Virus record (IMG/VR): IMGVR_UViG_3300023174_000118
Coordinates: 22,844 to 86,843 of that record
DNA: 64,000 nt
DNA from: a virus
Direction: 5' to 3' (one strand)
Shown here piece after piece: positions 18,201 to 64,000 of this stretch; positions within the stretch are counted from its first letter, which is position 1, and the number at the start of each line of letters is the position of its first letter. The notes below the pieces were generated by a model. The model searched no databases, had not been told where the DNA came from, and was given only the letters and a program-made list of their open reading frames with translations. A program made the position numbers and the translations under genes.

Positions 18201-18778
18201 GGGACTGTAAGACCTACTGTTAGTTGACGTCCTGCCCACTGAGTATTTTTACCCCAGTTAATCATTTGAACTCCACCATCTTGAATAACTTTATTCATGA
18301 TCTGAAGTTCTTGTTTAGCAAGAGCAGTTTTATTTTTTATAGAATCAAGACCCTGTGGAATATGTACGCTATATTGCATAAGACCTTGAGCATTTTTGCC
18401 CATAGGCTGTATAATTGCATTTTGTAAAGCCACTTGCTGTTTAGCAAGTTCTCTAATTAATCCACCTTGAGTTTTTGTATGCTGTTGAAATGTCTGAAAA
18501 TATTGCTTCAGTTTCATTTGGCCCTTGTCTAGGTTGGTACCAAACTTTTCAACATCCGATGTTAAAGTAACAAAGTGTGTTGCAAACTGTCCAGTTCTTC
18601 TTAGGTTTTCGCCAAAAGATCTGTTCATCGTAGCAACTTGACTTGCAAGTCTTGCGTCCGATTGAATTATTTGTGCTTGAAGTTTTGATAGAGAGGCTGC
18701 AACCTTATTGACATCTGCAATAAGACCTGAGAAATCTGCATTAGCAACTATATTAGTTACAATATTTTCATCAGCCAT
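12287..18778 (-). CDS. Tape measure protein (TP901-like core)
   Basis: 2163 aa, Ala/Gly-rich helical; LTVGLTVPL, AAEGANALKS, GTDTVPAMLTEGEFVV; follows the tail chaperones. Confidence 0.95.
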   Translation of the reverse strand: MADENIVTNIVANADFSGLIADVNKVAASLSKLQAQIIQSDARLASQVATMNRSFGENLRRTGQFATHFVTLTSDVEKFGTNLDKGQMKLKQYFQTFQQHTKTQGGLIRELAKQQVALQNAIIQPMGKNAQGLMQYSVHIPQGLDSIKNKTALAKQELQIMNKVIQDGGVQMINWGKNTQWAGRQLTVGLTVPLAAFGTAASKAFREADAELTRLTKVYGGIAATSATELSKVRNEVSATAKDISKTYGVSFKDTITLAADIAATGKQGNDLLNSVKETSRLAVLGEVDRQDAMKATLAIQNTFKQNTDQLSESINFLNAVENQTSTSLADLIEAIPKAGPVIQGMGGSVKDLALYLTAMKEGGVNAAEGANALKSALASLINPTKVASEKFASMGIDLGGIVTKNAGNLTGTILELQKALDNLDPLQKQQAIEQLFGKFQFARMNALFANLGKQGSQTLQVLDLMKASSAELAGVAGRELSMVTESASGKYRRALEGLKADLASMGEEFLKVQTFFINVTDGILKFINKLPAPIKTILTFVTGLTAIIGPVIMLTGVLANFFGYIIKGASHFKSLFKGGEGWKMLTPEILAAQKAGSLVEATFYSDAKAATVLKTAIAGLVTEFEILQSKAMTGAVSVAPAISTVAGNIVKGSGERVVNPSHPLISPQDTRSMSHLNPVAGMTSDQKAAQTIFGVVPGAPKVNQKIGNNPQMYMADDLPKIPGLTSVNGASTGIVAAEAAKWHAMTGALAMQSQAEIALLKKEVASTGLITASLSDSYQALLPTMTKLTANAAVESAAIVAQLQAGKITVDQARVKIIQLNAQVESMIAQASVDIAGQQGRSIGLTTVPLLNQPVVNNAGKSNMKELLRPGRTRDLLNKIARGLGVKTFGAGYSTETTIPKRFATGGVVYRQQGSDGPEFTPMGTDTVPAMLTEGEFVVNADAAKQNMPLLKAINGGATLMGANEDVTVPRLTGVTQQEMQTTFPDRFRGRGSIGSYRLRGTAGVYLNDVTDPAILAKYPHLVENGRISREKLNALLAGRPGVPTPVYEAAMKASGHPHVGSTDQFLNSLAKAGIITGKDAEGLQKEIDTIYRRGIRNLATVTDARNPYHQASDMVIQKHLYNNPDALGFWNKFSSEPAYIVSENRRSNGDMMRSPSMELRSISHNGKTIELDPLKATRSQGFFAHATTPAPLLKRLMTAGITATESRFVHKGWAAQRRRFANGGPVYMANGGMVPGYNKGGMVQYFNEGGGPVGFRAGFQSQTDKGYLGKGLMSRPEGGGLGMGTQMGIMMGGSMLGQSIGGGVGTAITAASTILPMLPFQKIIPLISRADKSVGLFTHGLGLAGKAAGLLTRMLPGAAAITTLLLLYKGVKMWQKSLEDTRREHIMLNGITEKGAKEAGIGYKNIGNSIKDVRDQLKLQKEAGLSAYDSMTPSGVGGLTLTIAQLKELKKTAKETMPELVGTFNSIDSSKVTDLAVNLKAQFVAAGMSAQDATNKIYAIIEASNKVGQGFGAIASSGFKAITDRGSAATSIINTLLGSLKEIDKVDSKAFASNIDTVISSLDSAATALIGTKDAQGKTITQADALITQFEKLKSLGADREKIGEKGLEHLKKERPELAGILKSSDTIAGVYAKWRVVLAGVNIDLRNITSEQAMGIAAYEEALSMAAASAIDNKNTAGALGTANKATNELTTSIKNGQNAIKSAEKTEAGFNKAKIKAIQDEIKAIRDRADAKKKALSDSVSAENTELELKKLQLEAQSALARGDRDAYEAANLSIEQLTKETQLRKASDKIDANAKKEEAAQQKLLDDDQAKKDKQQDTINKYNKSGQTFAEQLSEINAVKTALSQLAIDQIENNNLKDPVKKAEGQKSLDGRLQTVVAGLEKASDVVQKAFPEYVDSKTNKGKLAAGGSYQGSTFVPTAAGEGNQAFSKLVTEIQGGAKANFAAMAESIKGGSTLTDVVRAMGGSAKATKSLVTADVLSANKGFNLDALKKTAKGSTQGDLTDEARERIIDKYKLKEGDTFTYDDRTYVVKRGEDGWMRSRAVKKALGGPVVAGQTYAVNDRLTPLGYQQEGFTPFTPQMSGIIRPNADTMPKYNIASGQVTGMRGGVNSSYNNNSYNISIALNGTNVTADDVVKRFKQELALVNAKEGIGRTVGGSI

Positions 18779-39059: not shown

Positions 39060-39920
39060 TTAGTAGTATAAATAAACAATTCCGTTTCCGCCAGTTCCTG
39101 ATGTGCCGTTAGCAGGACAAGCACCGCCTCCGCCACCGCCTGCGCCGCCGTTGCCTGCAGTTGTTCCTAAAGCATTAGATCCAACACCCGTAAAACCGCC
39201 TCCGCCGCCGCCTGCTCCAAAACCTGCTCCTGTGCCTGATGAACTAGTACCGCCTGCGCCGCCTCTTCCTGATCCTCCAGCGCCGCCAGTTCCTAATCCT
39301 GATGCTGTTAATGCGCCTCCACCGCCTCCGACAAGTCCTGAACCGCCTGCTCCAGCATTACCATTACCAATATTGCCACCACCGCCACCGCCTGAAGCAC
39401 CAGAACCACCTGCAATAGGTGTTGCGCCACTTGTTACTGCATTTCCACCTCCGCCTGCATAACTATTTCCACCATTACTGCCACCAGGTGCTCCTGTGTA
39501 AGAAGTGCCTCCACCTGTTGAGCCACCTGTTCCGCCTCCGCCTCCGCCTCCGCCAGTTCCTACTGATCCAATAGGTGTAATTGATCCTTGACCACCAGCA
39601 CCTCCGCCACCAATAACCATTCCATAAACACTTGGACTACCAGCATTAGAACCCACAGAAGCCGTACCACCTGCACCGCCAGTTCCAACAGTTACTGTGT
39701 TAGAAATATAAGTCCACCCAGCAGAATATCCTCCTGCGCCGCCGCCACCTGCTCCAGTGACTGCATATCCTCCACCGCCGCCGCCGCCAATGCAAATTGC
39801 ATAAACTCTATTAATTCCTGCGGGAATGGTAACAGGACCTGATATAGTAAAAGTTTGTTGCAACTTTAAACCATAAGGTGAGTCGCTAAACTTTGAATTT
39901 GAATATATATCTACGCTCAT
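39060..39920 (-). CDS. Polyglycine protein, class A
   Basis: IYSNSKFSDSPYGLKLQQ, RVYAICIGGGG, SAGWTY, YGMV, ends IVYLYY. Confidence 0.85.
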   Translation of the reverse strand: MSVDIYSNSKFSDSPYGLKLQQTFTISGPVTIPAGINRVYAICIGGGGGGGYAVTGAGGGGAGGYSAGWTYISNTVTVGTGGAGGTASVGSNAGSPSVYGMVIGGGGAGGQGSITPIGSVGTGGGGGGGGTGGSTGGGTSYTGAPGGSNGGNSYAGGGGNAVTSGATPIAGGSGASGGGGGGNIGNGNAGAGGSGLVGGGGGALTASGLGTGGAGGSGRGGAGGTSSSGTGAGFGAGGGGGGFTGVGSNALGTTAGNGGAGGGGGGACPANGTSGTGGNGIVYLYY

Positions 39921-39947
39921 GTTATCTCCATTTTATATCTTATTATA

Positions 39948-40868
39948 TCAGTAAAATAGGTAAAGTATACCTGCTCCACCTGATGAACCACCACCGCCGC
40001 CGCCTGCACCGCCGCCGCCAAGACCGCCAGTACCGCCAGAGGCACCTGATGCGTTAATACCATTGCCAGCGATTCCAGCACCGCCACCGCCTGCACCCAG
40101 TCCAATTCCTGATGTACCTGTGCCACCAGTAGTTATTGCCCCAGTTAAAATGTTTATTCCGTTACCACCGTTACCGCCTGTACGAATTCCCGTTGTTGAA
40201 GAAGCACGACCGCCACCGCCGCCTGCCAAACCTGACCCACCATTACCGCCTGTATTGGTTTGACTTCCTGGAAAATATGTTGAACCGCCTCCGCCTCCAG
40301 AGATTCCATCCCCACCATTACCCGCCGTTGCTACTGCGTTTGTTCCACCACCGCCACTACCACCACTACCGCTATTTATTATAGTCACTACGTTTGCTGT
40401 TACGGCTGCTCCACCAGGCATACCCCAATAATTTGTAGCGCCTGCTCCTGAATTAGCATCTGGTAATCCTCCTGATCCTCCACCGCCAAGAAATGCTCCG
40501 CCGCCTTGACCACCTCCGCCACCGCCTGCTATTATGTTTCCATATTGTGTGTATCCTCCGCTAGTCTGTGTTCCTCCACCTGAACCTACAACACAAGAAG
40601 AAACTGCAATAGTCCAACCCCAAGCAATTCCACCTGCTCCACCTGGCGAATTACCACTAGCTCCGCCGCCGCCGCCTGCTGCGATAGCATAAACAAATGT
40701 AATATTGGCGGGAATTGTAACAGATCCGCTAGATGTAATTACTTGTTGACATTTTAATCCATAAGGATTTACAAAAGATGTAAATGATGTAGGAGTATTA
40801 CTACTATTAGCAGTATGCCAATTAGACACTTGTGTGCCTGATTTATTTTTTCCAAATACATTTGTCAT
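39948..40868 (-). CDS. Polyglycine protein, class B
   Basis: QVSNW, PYGLKCQQ, AWGWT, YTQYGNI, TNYWG, GINILTG, ends ILYLFY. Confidence 0.85.
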   Translation of the reverse strand: MTNVFGKNKSGTQVSNWHTANSSNTPTSFTSFVNPYGLKCQQVITSSGSVTIPANITFVYAIAAGGGGGASGNSPGGAGGIAWGWTIAVSSCVVGSGGGTQTSGGYTQYGNIIAGGGGGGQGGGAFLGGGGSGGLPDANSGAGATNYWGMPGGAAVTANVVTIINSGSGGSGGGGTNAVATAGNGGDGISGGGGGSTYFPGSQTNTGGNGGSGLAGGGGGRASSTTGIRTGGNGGNGINILTGAITTGGTGTSGIGLGAGGGGAGIAGNGINASGASGGTGGLGGGGAGGGGGGSSGGAGILYLFY

Positions 40869-40877
40869 ACATACTCC

Positions 40878-41798
40878 TTAATAATAAAGATAAAGAATTC
40901 CTGCTCCACCTGCTCCGCCAACAGTATTTCCACCACCACCTCCGCCGCCGCCTGCGCCGCCATTACCTCCAGTATAACCTACTCCATTTAAACCATTGCC
41001 AGCTGTGCCACAACCGCCGCCGCCAGAGCCAGCTACGCCAAACAATGAGCCTACTCCGCCTAATGCGGTTACACCTTTTTGAATATTAAAACCATTTCCT
41101 CCAAAACCACCTGGTCGAGTGGCCGTGCCTGCACCTGCACCGCCGCCTACTAAACCACTACCTCCGTTTTTACCATTATTACCTCCTGCGCCCCCGCCTG
41201 ATATGCCATCTCCGCCATTACCTAAACCTCCGCCGCCTCCTGCGCTACCTGCGCTACCATTTGGCGATGTCGTTATATTTCCATTAACGCCGCCAGGTAT
41301 TCCCCAATAATTAGTGCTACCTGAAGCACCATTTGCACCACCCTGACCACTGCTGCAGCCGCCACCGCCGCCGCCTAAAAAACCACCACCTGCACTATCA
41401 ATACCATTATATCCGCCTTGACCACCACCGCCAGAAATTATATTACCGTATTGCGTATAACCGCCACGACCAGGAGCAATTGAAGTAGATACCCCAGCAA
41501 TTCCGCCTGCAGCAACAATACAAGATGAGCTTGAAAGAGTCCAACCCCAAGCAACGCCGCCTGCACCACCGCCTGCACCACCATACCATCCGCCGCCGCC
41601 TCCTCCGCCTATGCAAATTGCATATACAAAAGTAATGTCGGCAGGAATTGTAACAGAACCAGTAGATGTAATTACCTGTTGAAGTTTTAACCCATAAGGA
41701 GTTATAAAAGATGTATTTATTGCTGGGGTATATGTATCATTTTGAGCCCATTGTGATACTTGAGAGCCTGATAATCCACGTTCAAATGAGTTAGCCAT
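40878..41798 (-). CDS. Polyglycine protein, class B
   Basis: QVSQW, PYGLKLQQ, AWGWT, TNYWG, ends ILYLYY. Confidence 0.85.
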   Translation of the reverse strand: MANSFERGLSGSQVSQWAQNDTYTPAINTSFITPYGLKLQQVITSTGSVTIPADITFVYAICIGGGGGGGWYGGAGGGAGGVAWGWTLSSSSCIVAAGGIAGVSTSIAPGRGGYTQYGNIISGGGGQGGYNGIDSAGGGFLGGGGGGCSSGQGGANGASGSTNYWGIPGGVNGNITTSPNGSAGSAGGGGGLGNGGDGISGGGAGGNNGKNGGSGLVGGGAGAGTATRPGGFGGNGFNIQKGVTALGGVGSLFGVAGSGGGGCGTAGNGLNGVGYTGGNGGAGGGGGGGGNTVGGAGGAGILYLYY

Positions 41799-41813
41799 TT
41801 ATACCCCTCCTTT

Positions 41814-42644
41814 TTAATAATATAGGTAAACAACACCGTTACCGCCTGAGCCAGCAGTACCACCAGTAGAGGCACCGCCTCCACCACCACCGCCTGAACC
41901 ACCATTACCGCCATTGTTAGCAGAAGCATTTGCGCCAGCGCCTGTGTAACCTGCTCCGCCACCACCACCGCCAAAACCTGTTCCTGTTCCTGATGAGCCA
42001 GTTCCACCAGCGTAGAAATCTCCAGTTCCACCAGCACCGCCTGTGCCTGTTCCTGCTGTTCCTGCTGCTCCACCGCCACCACAAATAAGTCCACGACCGC
42101 CAGCACCAGCAGTTTGAGTTCCTGTTGTAGTTGCTGAACCACCACCGCCGCCAGTATTTACACCTGCTGCACCAGCAGTACTGTTAGCACTCGGGCCACT
42201 TGCATAGCCAATTTGGCTTTGACCAGTATTTGGCGCACCTGTGTAAGAAATACTATTTGAGGAGGAAGCACCACCGCCGCCACCGCCTAATGTTGAATTT
42301 TGTCCACCTGTACCACCAGCAGCCATCACCATTCCATAAATTGATGAACCGCCGTTTGCACCAGCAGCCGCAGATGATGAACCAGTACCACCTGCGCCAA
42401 CAGTTACGGAAGTTGAAACATAAGTCCAGCCAGCAGAATATCCTCCTGCTCCACCACCACCACCACCGCCTGTAGCCTGTGTGCTTCCAGCACCACCACC
42501 ACCAATTACAATTGCATAAACTCTTTGAATACCAGCAGGAATATCTGTGATTGATGTTGTTCCTGTTGCGGTAATTGTGCGTTGCAGTTTGAGTCCATAA
42601 GGTGAATCGGTAAATTGTGAATTGCTATAAATTGATGCGCTCAT
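41814..42644 (-). CDS. Polyglycine protein, class A
   Basis: IYSNSQFTDSPYGLKLQ, SAGWTY, YGMV, ends VVYLYY. Confidence 0.85.
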   Translation of the reverse strand: MSASIYSNSQFTDSPYGLKLQRTITATGTTSITDIPAGIQRVYAIVIGGGGAGSTQATGGGGGGGAGGYSAGWTYVSTSVTVGAGGTGSSSAAAGANGGSSIYGMVMAAGGTGGQNSTLGGGGGGASSSNSISYTGAPNTGQSQIGYASGPSANSTAGAAGVNTGGGGGSATTTGTQTAGAGGRGLICGGGGAAGTAGTGTGGAGGTGDFYAGGTGSSGTGTGFGGGGGGAGYTGAGANASANNGGNGGSGGGGGGGASTGGTAGSGGNGVVYLYY

Positions 42645-42653
42645 AATTATCTC

Positions 42654-43553
42654 CTAGTAGAAAAGGTAAAGTATTCCTGCGCCGCCTGAGCCAGCAGTAC
42701 CACCAGTTCCAGCACCGCCTCCACCGCCACCGCCAAGACCGCCAGCACCACCATTATTTGCAGAAGCCGCAGTTCCATTACCTGCAATACCAGCACCGCC
42801 TCCACCTGCGCCGTTTGAGTTTGTTCCAGTAGTACCTGCTCCACCAGTTGTTTGTGCGCCAGTTAGGATATTTATTCCAGTACCACCTGAGCCACCTGTG
42901 CGAGTGTTTGAACTACTTTGTCCAGCAGCGCCACCGCCACCGACTAAACCTGAACCACCATTACCGCCCGTTGAGGTTCCAGTAGAAACTTGGCAAAAAG
43001 CGCCACCGCCTCCTGAAATTCCATTTCCCCCATTACCTCCTGCAACTCCAGCGGTAGTTGAAAAAAAACCTGAACCACCACCAGCACCATTTCCTCCATT
43101 GAGGTTGGTTCCACCTCCAGCACTACCACCTGGTATTCCCCAATAATTTGTTCCAGCACCGCCAGTACCACTTGCTCCAGCACCAAGAAATGAATTACCA
43201 CCACCACCGCCAGTAATAATGTTTCCATAGCGTGTATAATTACCACTACCTGATGAGCCACCAGCACCAACTATGCAAGTTGAGTTTGCTAAAGTCCAAC
43301 CCCAAGCAACTCCACCTGCTCCGCCACCATAACTGCTGCCACCACCGCCACCACCGCCAACTGCAATAGCGTAAACAAATGTAACTCCAGCAGGGATTGT
43401 TACTGATGTTGTTCCAGCGTTGATTGTCTGTTGTAAGCGCAATCCGTAAGGAAGAACAAAATGAGTATTAGATAAAGATGTTGATGCAGGAGAAGATGGG
43501 TGCCAATCGCTGACTTGTGAACTTACTTCGCCTCTAGGTAGATATTGATGCAT
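42654..43553 (-). CDS. Polyglycine protein, class B
   Basis: QVSDW, PYGLRLQQ, AWGWT, YTRYGNI, TNYWG, ends ILYLFY. Confidence 0.85.
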   Translation of the reverse strand: MHQYLPRGEVSSQVSDWHPSSPASTSLSNTHFVLPYGLRLQQTINAGTTSVTIPAGVTFVYAIAVGGGGGGGSSYGGGAGGVAWGWTLANSTCIVGAGGSSGSGNYTRYGNIITGGGGGNSFLGAGASGTGGAGTNYWGIPGGSAGGGTNLNGGNGAGGGSGFFSTTAGVAGGNGGNGISGGGGAFCQVSTGTSTGGNGGSGLVGGGGAAGQSSSNTRTGGSGGTGINILTGAQTTGGAGTTGTNSNGAGGGGAGIAGNGTAASANNGGAGGLGGGGGGGAGTGGTAGSGGAGILYLFY

Positions 43554-50996: not shown

Positions 50997-52352
50997 TTAG
51001 TAATATAAAAATATTACTCCGTCTCCGCCTTTACCTGAAAATGCACCATTAGAAGATGCACCACCGCCGCCTCCACCAAGTCCGCCATTACCGCCAGCAT
51101 TTCCTACACCATTTTCTCCATTTGCAAGATAGCCTGCGCCGCCTCCGCCTCCGCCAAATAAAATTCCTGTTCCTGTTGATCCAGATCCACCAACAAATCT
51201 ATCACTATTACCTCCAAGCCCTGTTCCTGAAGTTACAACTCCAGTTGTACAGGCTGATCCTGCTCCGCCACCAATAGCGCCCCTACCACCGTTGGGAATG
51301 AAATATGCGCCAGTTGCTGGTATTGCTGCTCCGCCGCCGCTTCCAGAAACTCCATCAAAACCACCAGTACTTCCCGTTGCGCCTCCTGCGCCATAACCAA
51401 TTACATTATTTGATGCAGAAGGTGCTCCAGTATAAGAAGCTCCACTTGAACCACCTCCAATAGTTGCTGTTCCGCCGCCACCTGCTCCACCAATTCCTGC
51501 TCCAGGTGACGGAGAAAAACCAGCATTTCTTCCGCCTTCTCCTCCACCAGCTAAAACTTGTCCATAAATAGTTTGTTGTCCAGAGTTTGATGATGTATAA
51601 GAACCAGTACATGCTATAGATGCACCTCCACTGCCTACTATTGCTGTATCTGAAACAAATGCCCAACCAGCAGATATGCCTCCTGCTCCGCCACCGCCGC
51701 CGCCACCACCATTATATGCAGTTCCGCCAGAACCAGTTCCTGTTATAGCATTTGTAAATGAAAATTGTGTTGAAGAAGCTGCTGTAACTGTTGCATATGC
51801 ATTATTAAGAGAAGCTCCAGATATTTGAGTAATTCCAGAAACATTTACAGTATCTCCAATAACAAAATTATTGTTGGCTATATATACTGCATTTACACCA
51901 TTTCCATATGCAGAAGTTATTGTAGTTGAAGTGCTTAATCTACCTGCTCCACCTGCTCCTCCGCCGCCAATACATACTGCATAAACTCTTTTGACATTTG
52001 AAGGAATTACAACAGATCCACTAGTTACACTACCTCCAGAAGTATATGTATTTGATGAAGCTAAAGTATTTAAAATAGTAAATGATGTACTTGTAACAGA
52101 ATAAATTGTTGCATTATTTATATTAAATCCTATATTTGCAGTTGCTGATAAATTATTATTTGATACAATGCCTGTAATAGAAACAATTTGTCCTGCTCTA
52201 TAAAAATTTGGACAACCATAGGTTATATATGAACCATTTGCTACAGCACTAACAATTGAGTAGGTTGCTTTAGTTTCATATATTGTTTGTCTAAGTTTTA
52301 ATCCATATGGGGTTTCACTATATTGTGAATTTTCATAAAATGTATTTGTCAT
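50997..52352 (-). CDS. Polyglycine protein, class A, with two inserted beta modules
   Basis: FYENSQYSETPYGLKLRQ, RVYAVCIGGGG, SAGW, ends IFLYY; two ITY/VY...GQ/D.V.I.G inserts. Confidence 0.85.
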   Translation of the reverse strand: MTNTFYENSQYSETPYGLKLRQTIYETKATYSIVSAVANGSYITYGCPNFYRAGQIVSITGIVSNNNLSATANIGFNINNATIYSVTSTSFTILNTLASSNTYTSGGSVTSGSVVIPSNVKRVYAVCIGGGGAGGAGRLSTSTTITSAYGNGVNAVYIANNNFVIGDTVNVSGITQISGASLNNAYATVTAASSTQFSFTNAITGTGSGGTAYNGGGGGGGGAGGISAGWAFVSDTAIVGSGGASIACTGSYTSSNSGQQTIYGQVLAGGGEGGRNAGFSPSPGAGIGGAGGGGTATIGGGSSGASYTGAPSASNNVIGYGAGGATGSTGGFDGVSGSGGGAAIPATGAYFIPNGGRGAIGGGAGSACTTGVVTSGTGLGGNSDRFVGGSGSTGTGILFGGGGGGAGYLANGENGVGNAGGNGGLGGGGGGASSNGAFSGKGGDGVIFLYY

Positions 52353-52355
52353 ATA

Positions 52356-53165
52356 TTAATAGTATAGCAAGACTAAGCCATTGCCCCCACTTCCGCCAGT
52401 TCCATTTGGTGAAGTTCCTCCACCGCCGCCTCCGCCTGCGCCTCCGTTACCACCTGCGCCAGCTGTTCCATTTGAGCCAGGTCCTGCATAACCTGCACCT
52501 CCGCCGCCGCTACCTGGTGCAGACCCACCAGTTCCGCCAGTGTATAAATCACCAGTTCCACCGTTTGCTCCAAAACCAGTTACAGATCCACCTCCGCCGC
52601 CACATATAAGTCCTCTACCTGCAGAATAAGTATTATTAAAATTACTTACTCCTCCACCTGCTCCAGTTGTTACCCCATCACCACCGTTTCCAAAAGCAAA
52701 TCCACCTCCAGAGGCATAGCTAATTCCTGAAGCTCCTACACCTGGTGCACCAGTATATGATGTTGTTGAGCTATTACTTGACCCTGTTGTTGCTCCACCT
52801 GATCCACCAGAGCTTCCATTATTGAGAGATCCAGCGCCTCCTCCTGCAAAAACCATTCCATAAATTGATCCTGTTCCTGAAGCACCAGTTACTGGGCTTG
52901 AATTTCCAACTCCACCTGCGCCTACTGTTACAATATTAGATGCATAAGTCCATCCCATAGAAAAACCACCTGCGCCGCCGCCACCTGTACCAGTTGTTGA
53001 TGAACTACCAGCTGCACCGCCGCCGCCAATAACTATTGCCCATACTCTTTTTATTCCTGGCGGAATTGTTACAGAAAAAGTTCCTGGAGTAGAAAAAGTT
53101 TGTTGAAGCTTTAATCCGTACGGTCCATCCGTAAAGTTTGCTTGATTATATATTGTTGTTATCAT
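52356..53165 (-). CDS. Polyglycine protein, class A
   Basis: IYNQANFTDGPYGLKLQQ, SMGWTY, YGMV, ends VLLYY. Confidence 0.85.
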   Translation of the reverse strand: MITTIYNQANFTDGPYGLKLQQTFSTPGTFSVTIPPGIKRVWAIVIGGGGAAGSSSTTGTGGGGAGGFSMGWTYASNIVTVGAGGVGNSSPVTGASGTGSIYGMVFAGGGAGSLNNGSSGGSGGATTGSSNSSTTSYTGAPGVGASGISYASGGGFAFGNGGDGVTTGAGGGVSNFNNTYSAGRGLICGGGGGSVTGFGANGGTGDLYTGGTGGSAPGSGGGGAGYAGPGSNGTAGAGGNGGAGGGGGGGTSPNGTGGSGGNGLVLLYY

Positions 53166-53168
53166 AGT

Positions 53169-54056
53169 TTAATAATATAGGTAAAGTATTCCTGCTCCAC
53201 CCACCCCTCCTGAAGCTCCTCCACCTGCTGCTCCGCCTCCAAGACCGCCTGTTCCACCATTCATTCCAGAACCATTTGTTCCGTTGCCTGCAGTTCCTGC
53301 GCCACCTCCGCCAGATCCACCGTTGTTACCAGTATTAATTCCGCCTAAACCTCCATATGTTTTTTGTCCAGTACTTATATTAATACCGTTTCCACCATTA
53401 CCGCCAATGGCTAAATTAGCAGTATTGCGTGAACAACCTCCGCCTCCACCTGCTAAACCTGAACCACCATTACCAGCAATAGCGGTTCCTGCAACTACTG
53501 TATTTGGTCCTCCACCTCCTCCAGAAATTCCATCACCGCCTTCACCTGCTGGAACTGAAGCGGAACCTGAAGTTCCTCCACCACCAGCACCAGATCCTAA
53601 ATTACCTTTTAATGCATTAAGTCCTCCAGTTCCACCAGGCATACCCCAATAATTAGTTGCTCCAGAATATCCTCCACCTCCTGCACCGCCAAGCAAATTT
53701 CCCGCTATATTACTTCCTCCACCTGCCAGTATATTTCCGTAACGTGTATAGCCGCCCGAACCATTTACTGAACCACCAGCGCCAATAACACAATATGGCA
53801 CTTTAACAGACCAACCCCAAGTAATTCCGCCTGCGCCTCCTCCACCGCCATTGCCTGAACCTCCACCGCCTCCAACTGCAATAGCATATACAAAATTAAT
53901 TCCTGCGGGAATTGTAACAGAGCCTGTTGATGTAATAACTTGTTGTAATTTTAAGCCATAAGGAGTAATTGAAGACACAAATGAAGCAGCTGATTGTGAT
54001 GATCCAAAATCAGATACTTGTCCTCCAGACTGTCCTCTTTTAATTGGATTAGCCAT
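53169..54056 (-). CDS. Polyglycine protein, class B
   Basis: GQVSDF, PYGLKLQQ, WGW, YTRYGNI, TNYWG, ends ILYLYY. Confidence 0.85.
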   Translation of the reverse strand: MANPIKRGQSGGQVSDFGSSQSAASFVSSITPYGLKLQQVITSTGSVTIPAGINFVYAIAVGGGGGSGNGGGGGAGGITWGWSVKVPYCVIGAGGSVNGSGGYTRYGNILAGGGSNIAGNLLGGAGGGGYSGATNYWGMPGGTGGLNALKGNLGSGAGGGGTSGSASVPAGEGGDGISGGGGGPNTVVAGTAIAGNGGSGLAGGGGGCSRNTANLAIGGNGGNGINISTGQKTYGGLGGINTGNNGGSGGGGAGTAGNGTNGSGMNGGTGGLGGGAAGGGASGGVGGAGILYLYY

Positions 54057-54067
54057 TTGTTACCTCC

Positions 54068-54931
54068 TTAGTAATATAAATAAATAATACCATTTCCGCC
54101 AGATCCAGTTGTTCCGCCGCCGCCGTTTGCTCCACCACCGCCGCCGCCTAAGCCGCCGTTGCCACCATTAATTCCAGAAGCATTAAAACCATTACCTGAT
54201 ATCCCACCACCGCCGCCGCCACCTGCGCCGCCGTTAGGAACAGTAGCGCCTATTCCACCAGTTGTTATTTGTCCAGTAATAATATTAAATCCATCACCGC
54301 CGTTGCCACCAATGCGAGTACCAGTTGTTCCGCTTGCGCCGCCTCCGCCGCCACCTGCTAAACCGTTACCGCCGTTGCCTGCTGTGTTAGTTTGAGTGCC
54401 ACTTGCTCCTGCATATCCACCACCGCCACCTGAAATTGAGTTTACGCCATTACTTCCTGAAATAACACTACCACCGAAGGCGCCATTTCCTCCTGCTACT
54501 GGCGTTCCCCAATAATTTGTTGAGCCAGCATATGTTGAGTTATTTGTTGAACCACCTCCTGCCGAACCTAAAACTCCACCGCTATTTACTCCAGCGCCGC
54601 CGCCTGCAATTATGTATCCATAACGAGTATATCCGCCGCCTCCGTTACCTGTTCCTCCTGCTCCAACTATACAAGAAGGTGCTGGTAGAGTCCAACCCCA
54701 AGCAATTCCGCCTGCCCCTGCTAGATTAGCACCACCTGCTCCTGCCAATACAACATAAACCCATGTAATGTTTGCTGGAATAGTTACTGATCCTGTTGAT
54801 AAAATTGTTTGCTGTAATTTAAGTCCATATGGAGATGCCATAGAACTTTGAGAATAATTTAAAAATCTTTCATTTGATGGAAACCAGTTAGATACTTGAC
54901 CTACTTGCTTTTTATTAATTGGATTTGTCAT
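54068..54931 (-). CDS. Polyglycine protein, class B
   Basis: GQVSNW, PYGLKLQQ, AWGWT, YTRYG, TNYWG, ends IIYLYY. Confidence 0.85.
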   Translation of the reverse strand: MTNPINKKQVGQVSNWFPSNERFLNYSQSSMASPYGLKLQQTILSTGSVTIPANITWVYVVLAGAGGANLAGAGGIAWGWTLPAPSCIVGAGGTGNGGGGYTRYGYIIAGGGAGVNSGGVLGSAGGGSTNNSTYAGSTNYWGTPVAGGNGAFGGSVISGSNGVNSISGGGGGYAGASGTQTNTAGNGGNGLAGGGGGGASGTTGTRIGGNGGDGFNIITGQITTGGIGATVPNGGAGGGGGGGISGNGFNASGINGGNGGLGGGGGGANGGGGTTGSGGNGIIYLYY

Positions 54932-57953: not shown

Positions 57954-58300
57954 TAAATAGTCACACTCCTGCTGAGGGTCATATATCCTTCTATTAATTT
58001 TATTTTATTAGAGTTAGAATCTGTAATCATAATGTCATACTCGGATTTAGGATAAAAAAGTTTATTTGTTTGATCGGGAGTCATTTTAATTGTTACTTTG
58101 CCAGCAGCCCCATCTATTGTTATTCCGCTTGAAGGTGAGGTAAGAGTAACGGCTAATTTTGATCCGCCTTTTGTATCACGAACCTGCATTTTAGCAGAAG
58201 CACCAGTTAGATTAATGGCTGCTCCAGCTGCATCTTTATACTCTACTATAAAACTAAAAGTAGCATTTTGATCTACTTCAAAATTTTTTTGACCTGCCAT
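57953..58300 (-). CDS. Ig-like (BppU-N-like) fibre attachment protein
   Basis: DQNATF, INLTGASAKMQVR, YDIMI...LIEG; first gene of the accessory block. Confidence 0.6.
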   Translation of the reverse strand: MAGQKNFEVDQNATFSFIVEYKDAAGAAINLTGASAKMQVRDTKGGSKLAVTLTSPSSGITIDGAAGKVTIKMTPDQTNKLFYPKSEYDIMITDSNSNKIKLIEGYMTLSRSVTI

Positions 58301-58372
58301 TTTATAACTCCTAAATAGGAAAACTCCTATGCTTATTTTAGCATAAGAGCGGTCCTAATAGTAATTGTTAAA

Positions 58373-58615
58373 TTACTTGTTTGTAAACCCAAATTCTTTG
58401 TTTGCTGGGCTTAGAGCCTTAAGAATAACTGGAGCCACTGCGGCAAATCCACCCATCAAAAGATCTCTTGGGCTTGTATTACCAGTCATATATAGAGCGA
58501 TTGCTGCTGAAAGAAATGCACGAGCATAAGTTCCAAGTGCTGCTAAAATCTGTTCTGTCATAACTACTTTCCCATCCTTGTTTAAATCGGCCTTGTCAAA
58601 TTTTTTTGTGGCCAT
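58373..58615 (-). CDS. Holin-like membrane protein with an EF-hand-like N-terminal loop
   Basis: Two hydrophobic segments, TYARAF...ALSP.NKEFG; DLNKDGKV. Confidence 0.55.
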   Translation of the reverse strand: MATKKFDKADLNKDGKVVMTEQILAALGTYARAFLSAAIALYMTGNTSPRDLLMGGFAAVAPVILKALSPANKEFGFTNK

Positions 58616-58681
58616 ATTATCATCTCCTAACAGGACACGGTGCCCTGTAAATTTGGCTTTTACGCCAATACTATTCTACCA

Positions 58682-60616
58682 CTAAGCCAAAATATCCACA
58701 AGTTCACAGTTTCCGTCTGAACTGCAGGCAAGCGTGGCATTTGTGGAAGTACCATCTTCTGTCTCATAAAAAGATAAATCTTCCCAACGGATCTCCTTTG
58801 GCATTTTAGCAACAAGAGCTTCGTATTCTTCTTTTTCTACTTCCTGATAAGGAGCCTGCTTATAGGAGTGATCTGAATGTGGCAGGAATGAAATACCTGA
58901 GACCTCATCAAAATGCTTATAAACCCAAGCACCTACTTCCATCCATTCATCTTCTTTTACTGAAACTGTAATTGAAGGCTTATGCTCACACCATGCACGT
59001 TGGTAAACTAACCAAATATTTAAGTGTTCAATAGCAGTTAAATCATTTCTAACAATTGCACCTTGTGGTGCTTTTACTGGAAATGAAAAAACGTATGTAT
59101 CGTTTGGCTTCATTACATCATCTTCTACGGGAATTCCGACTTCCTTTAAAAATGTAGAAATTGGATCTCCTTTTGAACCACGTACTGTGCGAATATAATA
59201 TGGAGAATGCCATGCATGCATTCCTGAAGACACCCCGACCAATTGAGATACTGTTCCTGATGGCTTTACACATGTAATAGCAGCAGACTCTGGAATCCCA
59301 ATTTTCCCAGCCTCATCTTTATTCTTTGCTCTTGCTGATTCTCTAAGAGTCATCAAAAATGCTTCTAACGAAACAAGGTCTTCTTTTCCTGACATAAACT
59401 TGTGCCCAAATTGTCCAGTTAAAGATACTCCTAGTAAGCGTTCTTCTTCTGTATTATCTTTCCAAATTTTACGAAGGTATTTGAAGTCTGTAAGTGTAGA
59501 CTGCCATGTTCCAAGAATGGTTGCAAGTTCTACCTTACGCTCAATATCTTTCTTTGTATCATTTTCACGTAATACGACTTCTGAAAGATTACAAAACTGG
59601 TAAGGACGTAAAATAATCTCTGAACATGGGTTAGTTCCGTAGTGTATATCTGGATCTCTTCTTCCATACTTGGCTGCTTGGGTTTGAGCTGCGGCCACAT
59701 TGTATATACCTCGTTCTCCCGATTTTGAATCATATAAAGATTTCCATTCTGCAATAAATTGTTCCATATCTGGTTTGCGTGAATACGCAACAGAGTTATT
59801 TGATAATGCACGTTGTGGACTTGCTTCCCACCAGTTTCCTGATTTAGCCTGCGCCATTTCAATGTCATTAATATTTGAAAGAGAAATCATTGCTGAGCGA
59901 CGTACTCCGCCAACTACAACAACTTCACCAATCTTGCACATAATGTCATGGCATTCAATTGGCTTAAGGTTTCTTCCTGTAGCATTTTTAAATTTTGCAA
60001 TTGTAAAATCAAATAGGTTAACAAGTGGTTGTGGTCCTGATGAACGACCACCCATTGTTTTAAGTCTTGCGCCTGCGGGACGAACTTTAGTAACATCTAT
60101 TGCTGGAATTTGTCCAGACCAAAGAAGTGCTAGAAGTTCACGATAAGCTTTTGCCCAACCTTGCTTTGAATCTTCTACTGTAATTACTGTAGTTGATTTT
60201 TCTAATGATTCTGGGACGGGGGGAAGTTTATTAATGTATTTATACTCAACAGAAAACCCTACACCTGTTCCGCACATAAGAATATACATGGTTTCATCAA
60301 ATGAACGTGGAGAATCAACTGGAAGAAAAGCACAATTGTATCCTGCAACATTATCTCTTTCCAATGCTACTCCTGAAGTCATAACAGAACGCATTGACGG
60401 CATGACATTTCGTTCGAATACACCATTTTTTAATTCCGCAACAAGCTTCTCATCTGGAATATAATTATGATTTGTTTTTAAAGCATTGAGCATAAACTCA
60501 AAATATCTATCTACTGTTTCACCCCACGTTTCACGACGGTTCTCTTCTGGAATCCATCTAGCGTAACGTGATAACGCAATAAAGTTTTCGTATGGGTTTG
60601 CAATAGTCTTAGACAT
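58682..60616 (-). CDS. nrdJ: Adenosylcobalamin-dependent (class II) ribonucleotide reductase
   Basis: PSMR, YNC, GTGVGF, GGVRRSA, TNPCSEI, CNLSE, KPSGT, C-terminal CSSDGNC; no adjacent beta subunit. Confidence 0.92.
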   Translation of the reverse strand: MSKTIANPYENFIALSRYARWIPEENRRETWGETVDRYFEFMLNALKTNHNYIPDEKLVAELKNGVFERNVMPSMRSVMTSGVALERDNVAGYNCAFLPVDSPRSFDETMYILMCGTGVGFSVEYKYINKLPPVPESLEKSTTVITVEDSKQGWAKAYRELLALLWSGQIPAIDVTKVRPAGARLKTMGGRSSGPQPLVNLFDFTIAKFKNATGRNLKPIECHDIMCKIGEVVVVGGVRRSAMISLSNINDIEMAQAKSGNWWEASPQRALSNNSVAYSRKPDMEQFIAEWKSLYDSKSGERGIYNVAAAQTQAAKYGRRDPDIHYGTNPCSEIILRPYQFCNLSEVVLRENDTKKDIERKVELATILGTWQSTLTDFKYLRKIWKDNTEEERLLGVSLTGQFGHKFMSGKEDLVSLEAFLMTLRESARAKNKDEAGKIGIPESAAITCVKPSGTVSQLVGVSSGMHAWHSPYYIRTVRGSKGDPISTFLKEVGIPVEDDVMKPNDTYVFSFPVKAPQGAIVRNDLTAIEHLNIWLVYQRAWCEHKPSITVSVKEDEWMEVGAWVYKHFDEVSGISFLPHSDHSYKQAPYQEVEKEEYEALVAKMPKEIRWEDLSFYETEDGTSTNATLACSSDGNCELVDILA

Positions 60617-60704
60617 TTTATAATACCTGTTTCTCCGCCTGGCGGTTAATTTAAATTTAGTGTGAAGATCCTATTCTACCAAAGAACGCTTAAAAGGGGA
60701 AGCC

Positions 60705-61709
60705 CTAAGAAAATTTTTTAGATAATCTTTCAAAAGCTTTCTTGGTCAACTGATCCCAATTGTAATCTTCATGTATTTTAGTTGATTGAGCAAAATAATA
60801 GCCAGAGTAAGCTTTATAGTTATTTGATACATTTAACATTAGTTCTTCTAAATGTTTTGCATCTGGCTTAAACATTTTTCCAATGTGCCCATCAGATATA
60901 AAGTTTGGCATAGTCTCATCTGTAAGTTTAGAGTCTAATTTAAGCGGTCCCATATAGTCCATATAGTGAGACCAATCATATGTTGATATAACTGGCATAC
61001 CTGTTGCTAAACCTTGAAGTGGTATAAAACCAAAACCTTCTCCCCATGTTGGATAAACTAAAACATGATGATCGTGATAAAGTTTTACAAGATTTTCTTC
61101 GCTAATTTCATCTGTAATTAAATCAATGTTGCTATAAAGTTCGTGGGGAACTCCAATAATACTATCTTCATGATCATAGACTCTAACTGTACTAAACTTA
61201 TGCGCTTTAATCGTTAAATGATAATTTGGATTATTCCCAAATAGTTTTATGAAGGTATTTACTACTAGTTGCCCGTCTTTTCTAGGGGAAGGCTCTCCAA
61301 CATGCAAAAATTTTAATGGTTCTCCTTCTTTAACAAATCTTTTCTTTGGAACCCAAATGCTTTCAATCCCATGTGGATAAACATATATTGGTTTAGTTAT
61401 TCCATTGTCTTTAAATACTTTAGCGCACCAATCTGATGTTGTCCAAACTTCGTCACATTCATTAAAACGTTCTACCCAGTCAGGATTCATTTCTGTAGAT
61501 TCCCAGGGAGTATATGAAACTTGATATTGTTTTCTGTGTAATTTAAAATGTTGTGGCTGAGTAAAACTTAATTGAATATCAGCTTTAGGATCAGCAAATG
61601 TTACGTAGTGTCCTAGTTTATTTAAAGATTTAACTATATTTTTTCCTGCATAGCCGTAGCCAACTGCGGGATTAAGCCCCGACTGAATAGTATAATAAGA
61701 TATATTCAT
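60705..61709 (-). CDS. Glycosyltransferase, GT-B/GT4-like
   Basis: GYG, TPWEST, PHGI, RKDG, EGFGFIPLQGLATGMPVI. Confidence 0.9.
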   Translation of the reverse strand: MNISYYTIQSGLNPAVGYGYAGKNIVKSLNKLGHYVTFADPKADIQLSFTQPQHFKLHRKQYQVSYTPWESTEMNPDWVERFNECDEVWTTSDWCAKVFKDNGITKPIYVYPHGIESIWVPKKRFVKEGEPLKFLHVGEPSPRKDGQLVVNTFIKLFGNNPNYHLTIKAHKFSTVRVYDHEDSIIGVPHELYSNIDLITDEISEENLVKLYHDHHVLVYPTWGEGFGFIPLQGLATGMPVISTYDWSHYMDYMGPLKLDSKLTDETMPNFISDGHIGKMFKPDAKHLEELMLNVSNNYKAYSGYYFAQSTKIHEDYNWDQLTKKAFERLSKKFS

Positions 61710-61731
61710 GTTTTCTTTCTGGTTGACTGGC

Positions 61732-61761
61732 TTGACAGGCTTATCCTATCAATGTTATGAT
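61732..61761 (+). promoter_or_regulatory. Promoter of the plus-strand island
   Basis: TTGACA-18 nt-TATGAT with an extended TG; divergent from the glycosyltransferase gene. Confidence 0.6.
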
Positions 61762-61794
61762 TGTAGTTCGTTATCTCTAGAGGAGGAAATGCCA

Positions 61795-62346
61795 ATGGAG
61801 AAAATAAAACAACAGGTGAGTGATCTGGCTCATAACATAGTTACAATAGTAATGATAACATTATTTTTGTTTCCTGTACAGCCAGTGCAAGCCTTAGAAG
61901 TAAAACCTTTAGTGAAAACTGAAGCCCAATTAAAGCAAGAAGTCTTAGATAGTTTTAGTAAAGAGATTTACAAGCCATCTGAGATGCTTACAGACGAAGA
62001 GTTAGTTTTACTACTTGAGACTGTAGGATTCGAAGGATCAGGCCTTCAAAAAGCTTGGTCAATAGCAAAGCGTGAATCTAATGGAAGACCGCTTGCATAT
62101 AACGGGGATAAGAAAACTGGAGATAGTTCCTATGGAATATTCCAGATAAACATGATCGGAAATCTTGGTCCTGCAAGACTTGAGAAATTCGACCTAAAGA
62201 GTAACAAAGAGTTATTCGACCCAGTAACTAACGCAGAGATAACGTACTACATGACTAATGGCGGTTTAGATTGGTCAAGCTGGAAGGGTATGACCCCGAA
62301 GGCCAAGGAATGGCTTTTGCAATTCCCAACTAATGTAAAGAAGTAG
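61795..62346 (+). CDS. Secreted lysozyme-like / SLT-type transglycosylase
   Basis: SD AGGAGG 8 nt before ATG 61795; signal-like hydrophobic N-terminus; IAKRESNG, SYGIFQIN, LFDPVTNA, WSSW. Confidence 0.85.
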   Translation: MEKIKQQVSDLAHNIVTIVMITLFLFPVQPVQALEVKPLVKTEAQLKQEVLDSFSKEIYKPSEMLTDEELVLLLETVGFEGSGLQKAWSIAKRESNGRPLAYNGDKKTGDSSYGIFQINMIGNLGPARLEKFDLKSNKELFDPVTNAEITYYMTNGGLDWSSWKGMTPKAKEWLLQFPTNVKK

Positions 62347-62352
62347 GAAGTA

Positions 62353-62562
62353 ATGCAGATACAATACGTATCTAAGTACATAGCCTTATCACAAGAGGGC
62401 CTTGTTCCAAGACTTGAATGTCCGATGGATCAGGGTCCTCTTTTCCCTAATCAAAACGGGGAGGATAGAGTCTTTGTTTATTGTCTATCTTGCCAATATA
62501 AGAAAATCCTTGGAACAAAAGATTACGATGATATCGTGAAAGCGGTGGACAATGTCAAATGA
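62353..62562 (+). CDS. Small zinc-ribbon-like protein
   Basis: CPMD...CLSC; SD AGGA. Confidence 0.65.
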   Translation: MQIQYVSKYIALSQEGLVPRLECPMDQGPLFPNQNGEDRVFVYCLSCQYKKILGTKDYDDIVKAVDNVK

Positions 62563-62755
62563 ATGTAAAAGCGGGCAATGCGCCTGCGAGCAAGAAGAAA
62601 ACTTCTTTCATGTTAAAGTGATTCCGCAAAATAGTGCAAAATTAAGTGCGGCGGAAGAAGAGACCTTTTCTTCATATGAGTTTGAATCAAATGCCCTATC
62701 TGAGAAAGACGCTATGGGAAGAGAAATATTTTGGGAAGATATGGGGAGGCCATAA
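62552..62755 (+). CDS. Hypothetical acidic protein
   Basis: Overlaps both neighbours; N-terminal CxxGxCxC. Confidence 0.55.
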   Translation: MSNECKSGQCACEQEENFFHVKVIPQNSAKLSAAEEETFSSYEFESNALSEKDAMGREIFWEDMGRP

Positions 62756-62958
62756 TGGAAGAAAAAGAACCTCAATCAATAGAAGATAACTTACCTATGG
62801 TGAACTATATAATGCTTCACCGTATTTACGACATGCTAACAATTATGGCAAACAAAGCAGATCCTGAAAAGACAGCTAAAATGATTGAATACCATGAACA
62901 AGGATTTCTTCTTGGGCCTGCGCCATCATTTGCTCCATCTGAAGATCCTGTTGACTAG
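62755..62958 (+). CDS. Hypothetical protein
   Basis: TAATG coupling and SD GGAGG give start 62755; YIMLHRIYDML. Confidence 0.7.
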   Translation: MEEKEPQSIEDNLPMVNYIMLHRIYDMLTIMANKADPEKTAKMIEYHEQGFLLGPAPSFAPSEDPVD

Positions 62959-62963
62959 AATGC

Positions 62964-62992
62964 TTGACATATAAAATATTCCATATTACAAT
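62964..62992 (+). promoter_or_regulatory. Near-consensus sigma70 promoter
   Basis: TTGACA-17 nt-TACAAT. Confidence 0.8.
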
Positions 62993-62997
62993 TAAGA

Positions 62998-63090
62998 TGT
63001 GTAGGTGATGGCGGCAACGTCTCCCTATATAATGTGTAGCAATACACTAGAAAAGCCCAATCGGATCCGCCTCTGATTGGGATTTTTTCT
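62998..63090 (+). ncRNA. Candidate ~90-nt small RNA
   Basis: Lies between the promoter and a terminator; two GCAA-tetraloop hairpins; no SD-led ORF. Confidence 0.6.
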
Positions 63091-63092
63091 TT
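63056..63092 (+). terminator. Intrinsic terminator
   Basis: CCCAATCGGA-N6-TCTGATTGGG followed by ATTTTTTCTTT. Confidence 0.75.
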
Positions 63093-63303
63093 TATATAGA
63101 TAGTATATGGACAATACGGACATATAGTGCATATAGTGCGAAAAAAGTGCTTCGGCGAAAGAAGAGCCATACTAGCACATACAACAATTTGTAGAATATA
63201 CCTTATAAGCCCTCTACGGGGGTTCTAAAGCCCTGAAGGGCCATATTTGGTATCTCCGATAAGAAAGGCCCTTAAAAGGGCGGGAGATAAAAAGCTGTGA
63301 ATT

Positions 63304-63384
63304 TTATATAGTAATAATCACCAATAAATAATATGCGCCAAGGATGATTATTAATGACCATAGGAATGATTTAGAACTGTTCAA
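63304..63384 (-). CDS. 26-aa single-TM microprotein
   Basis: TTG start; MNSSKSFLWSLIIILGAYYLLVIITI; overlaps the upstream gene. Confidence 0.4.
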   Translation of the reverse strand: MNSSKSFLWSLIIILGAYYLLVIITI

Positions 63385-63517
63385 GGTCTATATCTTCATT
63401 TAGGTCAAAATCAAAGAAATCTTCTTGCTGTCCCGCCCAATTTAAAAATTTAGACAAAGCTACACCTGACAGGATTGCTGTCGCAATTAGCATTATAAAA
63501 GCTGAGATTTTTTTCAT
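63371..63517 (-). CDS. 48-aa membrane microprotein with an acidic tail
   Basis: MKKISAFIMLIATAILSGVALSKFLNWAGQQEDFFDFDLNEDIDLEQF; ATGA coupling. Confidence 0.65.
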   Translation of the reverse strand: MKKISAFIMLIATAILSGVALSKFLNWAGQQEDFFDFDLNEDIDLEQF

Positions 63518-63591
63518 TTGATATCATCCCAAAATGCTATTAATAGAACCAATATAGGTCCAAATATTACTGTTGCTTGAATCCAATTCAT
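63514..63591 (-). CDS. 25-aa single-TM microprotein
   Basis: MNWIQATVIFGPILVLLIAFWDDIK; ATGA overlaps at both ends; SD AAGGA. Confidence 0.6.
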   Translation of the reverse strand: MNWIQATVIFGPILVLLIAFWDDIK

Positions 63592-63734
63592 TTAGATTCC
63601 TTAGATTTCATGATCATTGCATATTCCATGCCATGTGCCATGCAGTATCCAATAGATGAATCATCTTTTCTTGTTGCAAATACTGGCAATCTGCATGTTG
63701 GCGTATTGCATTTCATATCTTTTAAATTATTCAT
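63588..63734 (-). CDS. 48-aa Cys/His microprotein (possible Zn finger)
   Basis: CNTPTC...CMAH; TGGTATAAT lies 6 nt upstream of the ATG. Confidence 0.6.
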   Translation of the reverse strand: MNNLKDMKCNTPTCRLPVFATRKDDSSIGYCMAHGMEYAMIMKSKESK

Positions 63735-63758
63735 ATTAATATTATACCATAATCCTAG

Positions 63759-64000
63759 TCAACTAGCTTTTATTCCATGTTTTCTCATATGAGTTCTTAC
63801 TCTATGGCAATTAGAACATACTATCTCACACTTAGCTATTTCTTCATCCAGGCGTTTCTTAGATAGGGTATTTATTAGTTCCGCCACATTTGCTTGCTTC
63901 CGCCCACGAACATGATCAAAATCCATCATATAATACGGATAGGATATTTTACAATCCATACATGGGTTTTTTTCTTTTAAGTCTTTTAAATAACGTGCCA
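63759..64000 (-). CDS. HNH endonuclease (5'-truncated by the window)
   Basis: PCMDC...DFDHV...KCEIVCSNCHRVRT; frame open to the window edge. Confidence 0.85.
   Translation of the reverse strand, partial: ARYLKDLKEKNPCMDCKISYPYYMMDFDHVRGRKQANVAELINTLSKKRLDEEIAKCEIVCSNCHRVRTHMRKHGIKAS

Follow-up and report, generated by a model that had tools for sequence, protein, structure and literature searches.

What is known of phage-encoded small RNAs comes mostly from a few enterobacterial phages. The short OOP RNA of phage lambda, which has a promoter and an intrinsic terminator of its own, is antisense to the gene it overlaps, and the c4 RNA of phages P1 and P7, processed out of a longer transcript, acts on one operon in the immunity of temperate phages. 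RNAIII of Staphylococcus aureus, a 514-nt host regulatory RNA with 3′ hairpins 13 and 14, pairs with the ribosome-binding regions of its targets through C-rich loops, including that of its terminator hairpin. The 6C small RNA (B11; Rfam family RF01066) of Actinobacteria is chromosomal and not phage-borne. As set out in the c4 passage of a 2025 review on phage small RNAs, c4 blocks translation of a phage mRNA through complementary stretches in its loops, which anneal around the ribosome-binding site (PMC12197685). The C-rich loops of 6C need no chaperone to pair with G-rich single-stranded sites in mRNAs, of which dnaB is one (PMC6486639). The article text of the review contains none of the terms 'actino', 'mycobacteriophage' and 'Streptomyces', and neither a term search of it nor our literature searches returned a description of the RNA reported below (PMC12197685).

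Here we report a predicted small RNA gene in a window of 64,000 nt (the whole stretch of DNA that was analysed), which forms the last 64 kb of an 86,843-base IMG/VR phage record that is ~70% complete. In working principle the RNA comes closest to c4, 6C and RNAIII, and it is a member of none of them, since it matches no model and differs in architecture and genomic setting. Like c4 (Rfam family C4), it is a phage-encoded small RNA for which we propose action in trans; in contrast to c4, it has its own promoter and terminator, its proposed seed is the terminator loop, its target word stands at several scattered genes, and it has no Rfam match even at E values up to 10. It resembles 6C in being short and highly structured, with a C-rich loop and a replication gene among its candidate targets, but the loop sequences differ, only one of its loops is C-rich whereas the other two are GCAA, and no 6C match was obtained at E up to 10. 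The C-rich terminator-hairpin loop, proposed here to face ribosome-binding regions, recalls RNAIII, which belongs to another lineage and whose UCCC loops fit the ordinary Shine–Dalgarno sequence rather than a private word. Like OOP RNA it has its own promoter and intrinsic terminator, but there is no gene that it overlaps, and tens of kilobases separate it from its candidate targets.

The small RNA gene and its genomic setting

The genes of the record lie nearly all on the minus strand. The RNA closes a short plus-strand operon (61792–62958) that encodes a 184-aa lysozyme-like protein (Pfam SLT_3), a 69-aa protein with paired cysteines and two 67-aa proteins, and converging minus-strand genes lie downstream. 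Pfam gave no match for the two 67-aa proteins and no RNA-binding family among the neighbouring proteins. The portal protein is 60% identical to the portals of large Streptomyces phages, and the relatives of the 67-aa gene in the phage collection belong to Streptomyces phages only (110 of 110 records), among them Jay2Jay, which is classified in Stanwilliamsviridae. The host marker WhiB had no match in the record, 70% of a genome. A Candidatus Saccharibacteria and a Bacteroidia metagenome-assembled genome from GTDB (L082, L083) were considered as hosts and rejected: their contigs carry the whole phage locus, with the reductase, the glycosyltransferase, four small genes and the RNA, and are probably mis-binned phage contigs.

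A sigma-70-type promoter at 62964–62992 of the plus strand (TTGACA at 62964–62969, a 17-nt spacer and TACAAT at 62987–62992) agrees with the consensus at 11 of 12 positions and precedes a predicted plus-strand RNA of ~93 nt (62998–63090), its 5′ end placed from the promoter and its 3′ end from the terminator. Hairpin 1 (62998–63031) comprises an outer stem, UGUGUAGG/CCUAUAUA (62998–63005/63024–63031), which includes G–U pairs, a bulged U at 63006 and an inner stem GGCG-GCAA-CGUC with its GCAA loop at 63014–63017; hairpin 2 (63034–63047) reads GUGUA-GCAA-UACAC. The intrinsic terminator (63056–63090), scored in the terminator/promoter scan as ten pairs with a loop of six, has the stem CCCAAUCGGA-UCCGCC-UCUGAUUGGG (63056–63065/63072–63081) and a U run at 63083–63088, and its helix can be extended by the flanks (63049–63055 with 63084–63090). 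Promoter, hairpins and terminator thus stand where a first-pass annotation of the sequence had placed them. In the predicted fold of the window's RNA nearly everything is paired, the exposed stretches being the two GNRA loops and the hexaloop only.

The plus strand folds at −38.3 kcal/mol, compared with −20.6 ± 3.2 for shuffled sequences (z −5.48; 0 of 200 shuffles as low), and the minus strand gives a z of −1.98 (9 of 200 shuffles as low), which supports the plus-strand orientation that the annotation had favoured from its G–U pairs and GNRA loops. Promoter-like sites are no commoner than chance in the region 58000–64000 (23 against 20.4 expected), so the case for an RNA gene is built on conservation and not on the scan. 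The single internal plus-strand frame (22 codons from 63009) is, by eye, broken in relatives, where its start is lost or a stop is gained, leaving no conserved ORF, and indels of 1–2 nt separate close relatives. ARAGORN found no tRNA or tmRNA gene in the window. Across the 64-kb window no Rfam 15 family reached its gathering score, and at E up to 10 the best match within 62700–63500 was MicC on the minus strand, at 20.5 bits against a cut-off of 90. The annotation's statements that the locus holds no credible ORF and no tRNA are borne out, and the Rfam search that it proposed found no family.

The locus therefore has its own promoter, its own intrinsic terminator and no coding frame, together with a secondary structure kept by compensatory changes (below), and we are highly confident that the self-contained plus-strand small RNA gene first annotated here is real. 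It represents a new, uncatalogued phage small RNA family that would merit an Rfam entry. A riboswitch or attenuator was ruled out, as the downstream context is variable and the next gene has its own promoter; resemblances to a preQ1-I aptamer, a tRNA T-arm and the 16S 3′ tail found no support from any tool.

Conservation and covariation of the RNA family

IMG/VR contains at least 595 relatives of the 67-aa protein encoded beside the RNA. From 36 distinct sequences we built a covariance model, which at a threshold of E 1e-3 matched 72 of 80 loci found via this neighbouring gene. Among the eight loci without a match, one (L041) is broken off by the contig end, four (L054, L034–L036) carry by eye shorter forms with the same loop, and in three (L056, L058, L060) no RNA was seen within the locus. 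Searching with the terminator pattern returned at least 119 IMG/VR stretches and, from GTDB, 2 contigs only; each of the 82 loci fetched in this way gave a full-length model match, and in 79 of them the 67-aa gene lies upstream on the same strand, a fixed gene order. The family thus spans well over a hundred contigs of uncultured freshwater phages, whose nearest cultured relatives infect Streptomyces, and its covariation is clear.

In alignments fitted to the model, for which most terminators of the set had been chosen by pattern, 70 distinct sequences had 95.4% of cells paired compared with 80.3% in shuffles, and both-sided changes occurred in 19 of 30 pairs, a number that 0 of 500 shuffles reached (16 of 30 pairs in the other alignment). 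The compensatory changes affect all eight pairs of the hairpin 1 outer stem and all five of hairpin 2, so that the covariation proposed as a check by the first-pass annotation is present. On an unfitted MAFFT alignment, RNAalifold predicted hairpin 1 and the extended terminator with eight compensatory pairs and missed hairpin 2, which MAFFT misaligns. Stem pairs of the terminator covary in distant variants (CUCAUACGAA/UUUGUAUGGG and others). Identity across relatives is 95.4% in the RNA and 87.6% in the adjacent coding sequence, with the RNA higher in 27 of 27 loci; the RNA evolves more slowly than the neighbouring gene.

The hexaloop UCCGCC is the same in every family member seen, even above wholly different stems. 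Hairpin 1 keeps GG, the bulged U plus one base, GAG...CUC and CC, with CUCCC conserved, and its cap is a C-rich loop (CAUCCCAC or CCACCA) in most variants and A/U-rich in others. The two GCAA tetraloops named by the first-pass annotation are not the defining feature: GCAA on hairpin 1 is confined to the window's subgroup, and hairpin 2 carries GCAA, GUAA, GAAA, UUCG or UUAG among relatives and is absent in short variants. A TTGAC −35 element, a spacer of 17–18 nt and a TAnnnT −10 element recur in nearly all variants, whereas the distant variants L088, L137 and L141 showed no obvious promoter. The constant features are accordingly the promoter, the base of hairpin 1 and, above all, the hexaloop, and not the GCAA loops. 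Dimerization by a kissing palindrome, GGAUCC, was considered and ruled out: short variants have GAAUCC with a compensating UUU opposite, which makes GGA/UCY a stem. As a separate observation, a second UCCGCC terminator hairpin follows a protein-coding gene directly at L019 4319–4356 (equal to L156 1365–1454) without hairpins 1 and 2, so the hairpin module can also occupy an mRNA 3′ end.

Beyond these relatives, an exact IMG/VR search for the window's own two hairpins, a pattern that is too strict, gave no match. Among cultured phages, blastn with 62300–63400 gave no match, and with the RNA alone no match was longer than 29 nt or better than E 0.4; the model reached no more than 8.3 bits on the region of Streptomyces phage Jay2Jay that is syntenic with the locus.

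Contigs from three of four RNA-library runs, which come from separate studies, cover the RNA and show that its sequence is present in RNA libraries; such contigs give no ends, strand or level. Two short contigs of run X1 (65 and 68 nt) lie wholly within 62984–63091, and other contigs bridge from the 67-aa gene into the RNA, crossing the predicted 5′ end. At loose contig ends, variant hairpin-1 sequences are joined to a common 3′ part, which points to several family members in the libraries. In run X6 the flanks are covered and the RNA is without cover. Summed contig depth in X1 is 134–194 over the RNA and ~10 beside it, figures that are unusable as an expression level, and the earlier description of the RNA as abundant therefore finds no support here.

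The loop complement GGCGGA at ribosome sites

The UCCGCC loop is the exact complement of GGCGGA, an atypical ribosome-site word in a genome whose other genes mostly use AGGAG or GGAGG. The dnaE gene, which encodes the 1093-aa DNA polymerase III alpha subunit and lies outside the window at 15135–18416 (−) of the record, has the ribosome site AAGAGGCGGAGAGUUAA-AUG. Within it, AGAGGCGGA is a 9-nt complement of UCCGCCUCU, that is, of the exposed hexaloop at 63066–63071 (+), the proposed seed, together with the adjoining UCU at 63072–63074. Among 99 start regions of this genome, dnaE ranks first for duplex formation with the 12-nt apex of the terminator hairpin (−17.4 kcal/mol). In 75 of 80 related loci GGCGGA occurs at most 20 nt before the dnaE start; these loci fall into three groups, and their spacers otherwise differ.

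The word recurs at a few further starts. Upstream of a 121-aa early gene, which belongs to the right arm and is missing from the window's truncated record, it stands 4–5 nt before the AUG in 40 of 42 loci and in 60 of 66 further ones (100 of 108). It also precedes a 123–141-aa gene in all three RNA-bearing genomes concerned (G011, G015, G016), although the proteins are only 44% identical, and a small zinc-ribbon-like ORF, of ambiguous true start, has GGCGGAGUAAUG in this record and three others. A gene-start scan of this genome found GGCGGA at 5 of 99 starts, 2–3 of them credible. Matching of the C-rich hairpin-1 loop of other members to a second ribosome-site class, GUGGGA, was rejected: in 3 records this word showed no excess over a reversed-pattern control.

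The ribonucleotide reductase leader (60632–60648, −) is a different case. It has GGCGGA at 60639–60634, and the word is found in 126 of 136 leaders, where it makes up the 3′ side of a small hairpin (CCGC-NRG-GCGG) that precedes GAAAAGG. The hairpin is conserved in most of the 136 loci, with compensatory changes in L150 and full replacement in L126 and L138. In L126, L138 and L150 another sequence takes the place of the word but the RNA loop is unchanged; G004, a genome that lacks the RNA, keeps the word. The leader is at most a weak candidate target, and its hairpin may be a regulatory element in its own right.

Within coding sequence GGCGGA is common. Its 85 occurrences on the coding strand rank 35th among hexamers, and 79 of them are in-frame Gly-Gly pairs, 1.5 times the expectation; nine glycine-rich paralogues (39060–43553 and 50997–54931, −) make the word so frequent. 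A freely pairing loop would consequently meet many off-target coding sites. As coding sites dominate, raw counts of GGCGGA with a start codon are uninformative and do not separate RNA-bearing from RNA-lacking genomes. The notion that the loop is a double glycine anticodon, or targets Gly-Gly codons, was dropped, the word being enriched only 1.5-fold and not being the commonest Gly-Gly pair.

Genomes without the RNA offer a comparison. The model finds no match in G004, a complete genome of 114,966 bases that has terminal repeats; where the RNA would stand, behind the 67-aa gene, there is a plain terminator. GGCGGA occurs at 0 of 179 gene starts in G004 compared with 6 of 167 (3–4 credible) in the complete RNA-bearing genome G016, and where G004 has orthologues of the word-bearing genes, it shows GGUCGGGGA before dnaE, AGCAGA before the 121-aa gene and GGUGGA before the 141-aa gene. 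G004 and five near-identical records, which make up a single clade, account for the six loci that lack the word before the 121-aa gene. The RNA is missing from all four searched records of this clade (G004 and G025–G027); in G025–G027 the only matching 10-mer falls inside a 499-aa coding frame. Two of two sister records with the word at the 121-aa gene carry the RNA. Since all RNA-lacking genomes belong to one clade, their joint absence of RNA and word is close to a single evolutionary event. The dnaE word is kept in three of the four RNA-lacking genomes (G025–G027) and lost in one, so it persists without the RNA, at least in the short term. The outgroup Streptomyces phage Jay2Jay has neither RNA nor word, its dnaE site being AAGGAAGG. 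Nine further records (G001, G002, G003 and G005–G010) do not include the RNA locus and are uninformative.

Our preferred reading, to which we assign a probability of roughly 45%, is that the RNA is a trans-acting anti-ribosome-site RNA. Host RNA polymerase would transcribe the ~93-nt RNA from its near-consensus promoter, and its own terminator would end the transcript. The working part would be the top of the terminator hairpin, where UCCGCC and one to three neighbouring bases would pair with GGCGGA, 5–7 nt ahead of the dnaE start codon and of those of a few small right-arm genes. Such pairing would mask the ribosome-binding site and change how these few genes are translated, more likely by repression; hairpins 1 and 2 would provide stability, and in other members hairpin 1 could offer a second C-rich loop. 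We infer the pairing of loop and word, the direction of the effect and its timing from the comparisons above. Against this reading stand several findings: with an invariant loop, no covariation of loop and target can be demonstrated; core complementarity extends over only 6–9 nt; GGUGGA at the 141-aa gene of G004 could still wobble-pair with the loop; and the reductase word belongs to the leader hairpin and behaves independently of the RNA. Moreover, with GGAG inside it, GGCGGAG might be no more than an ordinary ribosome site.

The main rival, that the RNA is a decoy, sponge or scaffold for a phage or host protein that recognizes the hexaloop together with the hairpin 1 core (GG, bulged U, GAG...CUC, CC), its match to GGCGGA being coincidental, seems to us unlikely. 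It would account for the conservation of bases inside paired regions and of the bulge, and for the persistence of the dnaE word in three of the four RNA-lacking genomes; an almost fully paired RNA with few exposed loops suits a protein ligand as well as a seed, and the RNA always lies beside the same small genes (67 and 69 aa). It leaves unexplained, however, why an exact loop complement is conserved within variable spacers before at least three genes, and the neighbouring proteins match no Pfam RNA-binding family. The sponge and the other roles that the first-pass annotation had suggested (antitoxin, decoy or primer) are not indicated by anything we found.

Returning to the anti-ribosome-site reading, we tentatively consider a broader form of it, a private translation code that we hold possible though doubtful as a whole. 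A handful of genes, including that for the replicative polymerase, would use GGCGGA in place of the normal Shine–Dalgarno sequence, and one strongly transcribed RNA, presenting the exact complement on its terminator loop, would stand in for the anti-Shine–Dalgarno tail of the ribosome, gating the set and timing replication; after loss of the RNA the words would begin to decay, as in the G004 clade. The target rule, loop UCCGCC against the ribosome-site word GGCGGA at dnaE, is testable. If it holds, an abundant group of environmental phages has a replication gene set whose translation is under the control of a single small RNA; if it fails, the invariant loop still flags a specific partner worth finding.

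The operon end and the sequence downstream

The position of the RNA allows another explanation, that it is a structured, mainly cis-acting 3′ end that would both terminate and stabilize the short rightward operon (61792–62958) and shield it from the leftward genes that converge on it, with a secondary role for the promoter. Its place at the operon end in 79 of 82 loci fits this, as do the RNA-library contigs that bridge the 67-aa gene to the RNA and the L019/L156 hairpin directly after a protein-coding gene; in addition, the helix can extend through the U tract and past it, and the stem stands between A and U tracts, an arrangement known from two-way terminators. A near-consensus promoter is nevertheless kept immediately upstream in nearly all variants, a plain terminator requires neither an invariant loop nor two extra covarying hairpins, and the RNA-lacking clade has an ordinary terminator at the same place. 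Taken together, these points make a mainly cis-acting role improbable.

The surroundings hold further features. Two copies of a ~35-nt motif (GTGC, A-rich spacer, GTGC, GGCG, AAGAAGAG) point the same way on the plus strand, one at 62634–62668 inside the first 67-aa ORF and one at 63136–63170, past the RNA. Many relatives have kept this second copy, in some cases at a distance of kilobases with inserted genes in between, and it overlaps a promoter-like sequence, TGGACA-18-TATAGT (63108–63137); the motif could be an operator, iterons or the start of a second RNA. Many related contigs end a few hundred to ~3000 bases past the RNA (L003, L007, L012, L020, L041 and others), the record itself stops 910 bases past it, and in Streptomyces phages the homologous 67-aa gene lies 10.7–11.7 kb from the left genome end. 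The contig ends and this gene position suggest a terminal-repeat boundary or a hypervariable region nearby.

The RNA might also be an origin-associated transcript that activates or primes replication at the iteron-like GTGC repeats and A-rich DNA (63108–63170), a reading that draws on the conserved motif with three GTGC repeats just downstream and on the many contigs that end close by, and that we regard as very improbable given the strong terminator between RNA and repeats, the genes inserted between them in several relatives, which mark them as separate modules, and covariation in three helices that priming does not need. A decoy or RNA antitoxin directed against a host system, which would suit the strong conservation of the RNA and has general precedent in phage RNA decoys, is likewise most unlikely, as there are no repeats like those of known RNA antitoxins, no adjoining toxin or defence gene and no Rfam match.

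Three minor features complete the picture of this region and its relatives. The converging leftward operon of small genes probably terminates at a terminator-like hairpin on the minus strand (63268–63281), GCCCUUUUAAGGGC with a U-rich tail. More hairpins of the form GCCC...GGGC lie at 63210–63250. In two relatives (G015:70400–86979, L291; G011:86000–104003, L292), many small plus-strand genes share the leader AACGAAAGG-N-AA before their starts, which is a second private ribosome-site class in these relatives, located beyond the end of the window's record.
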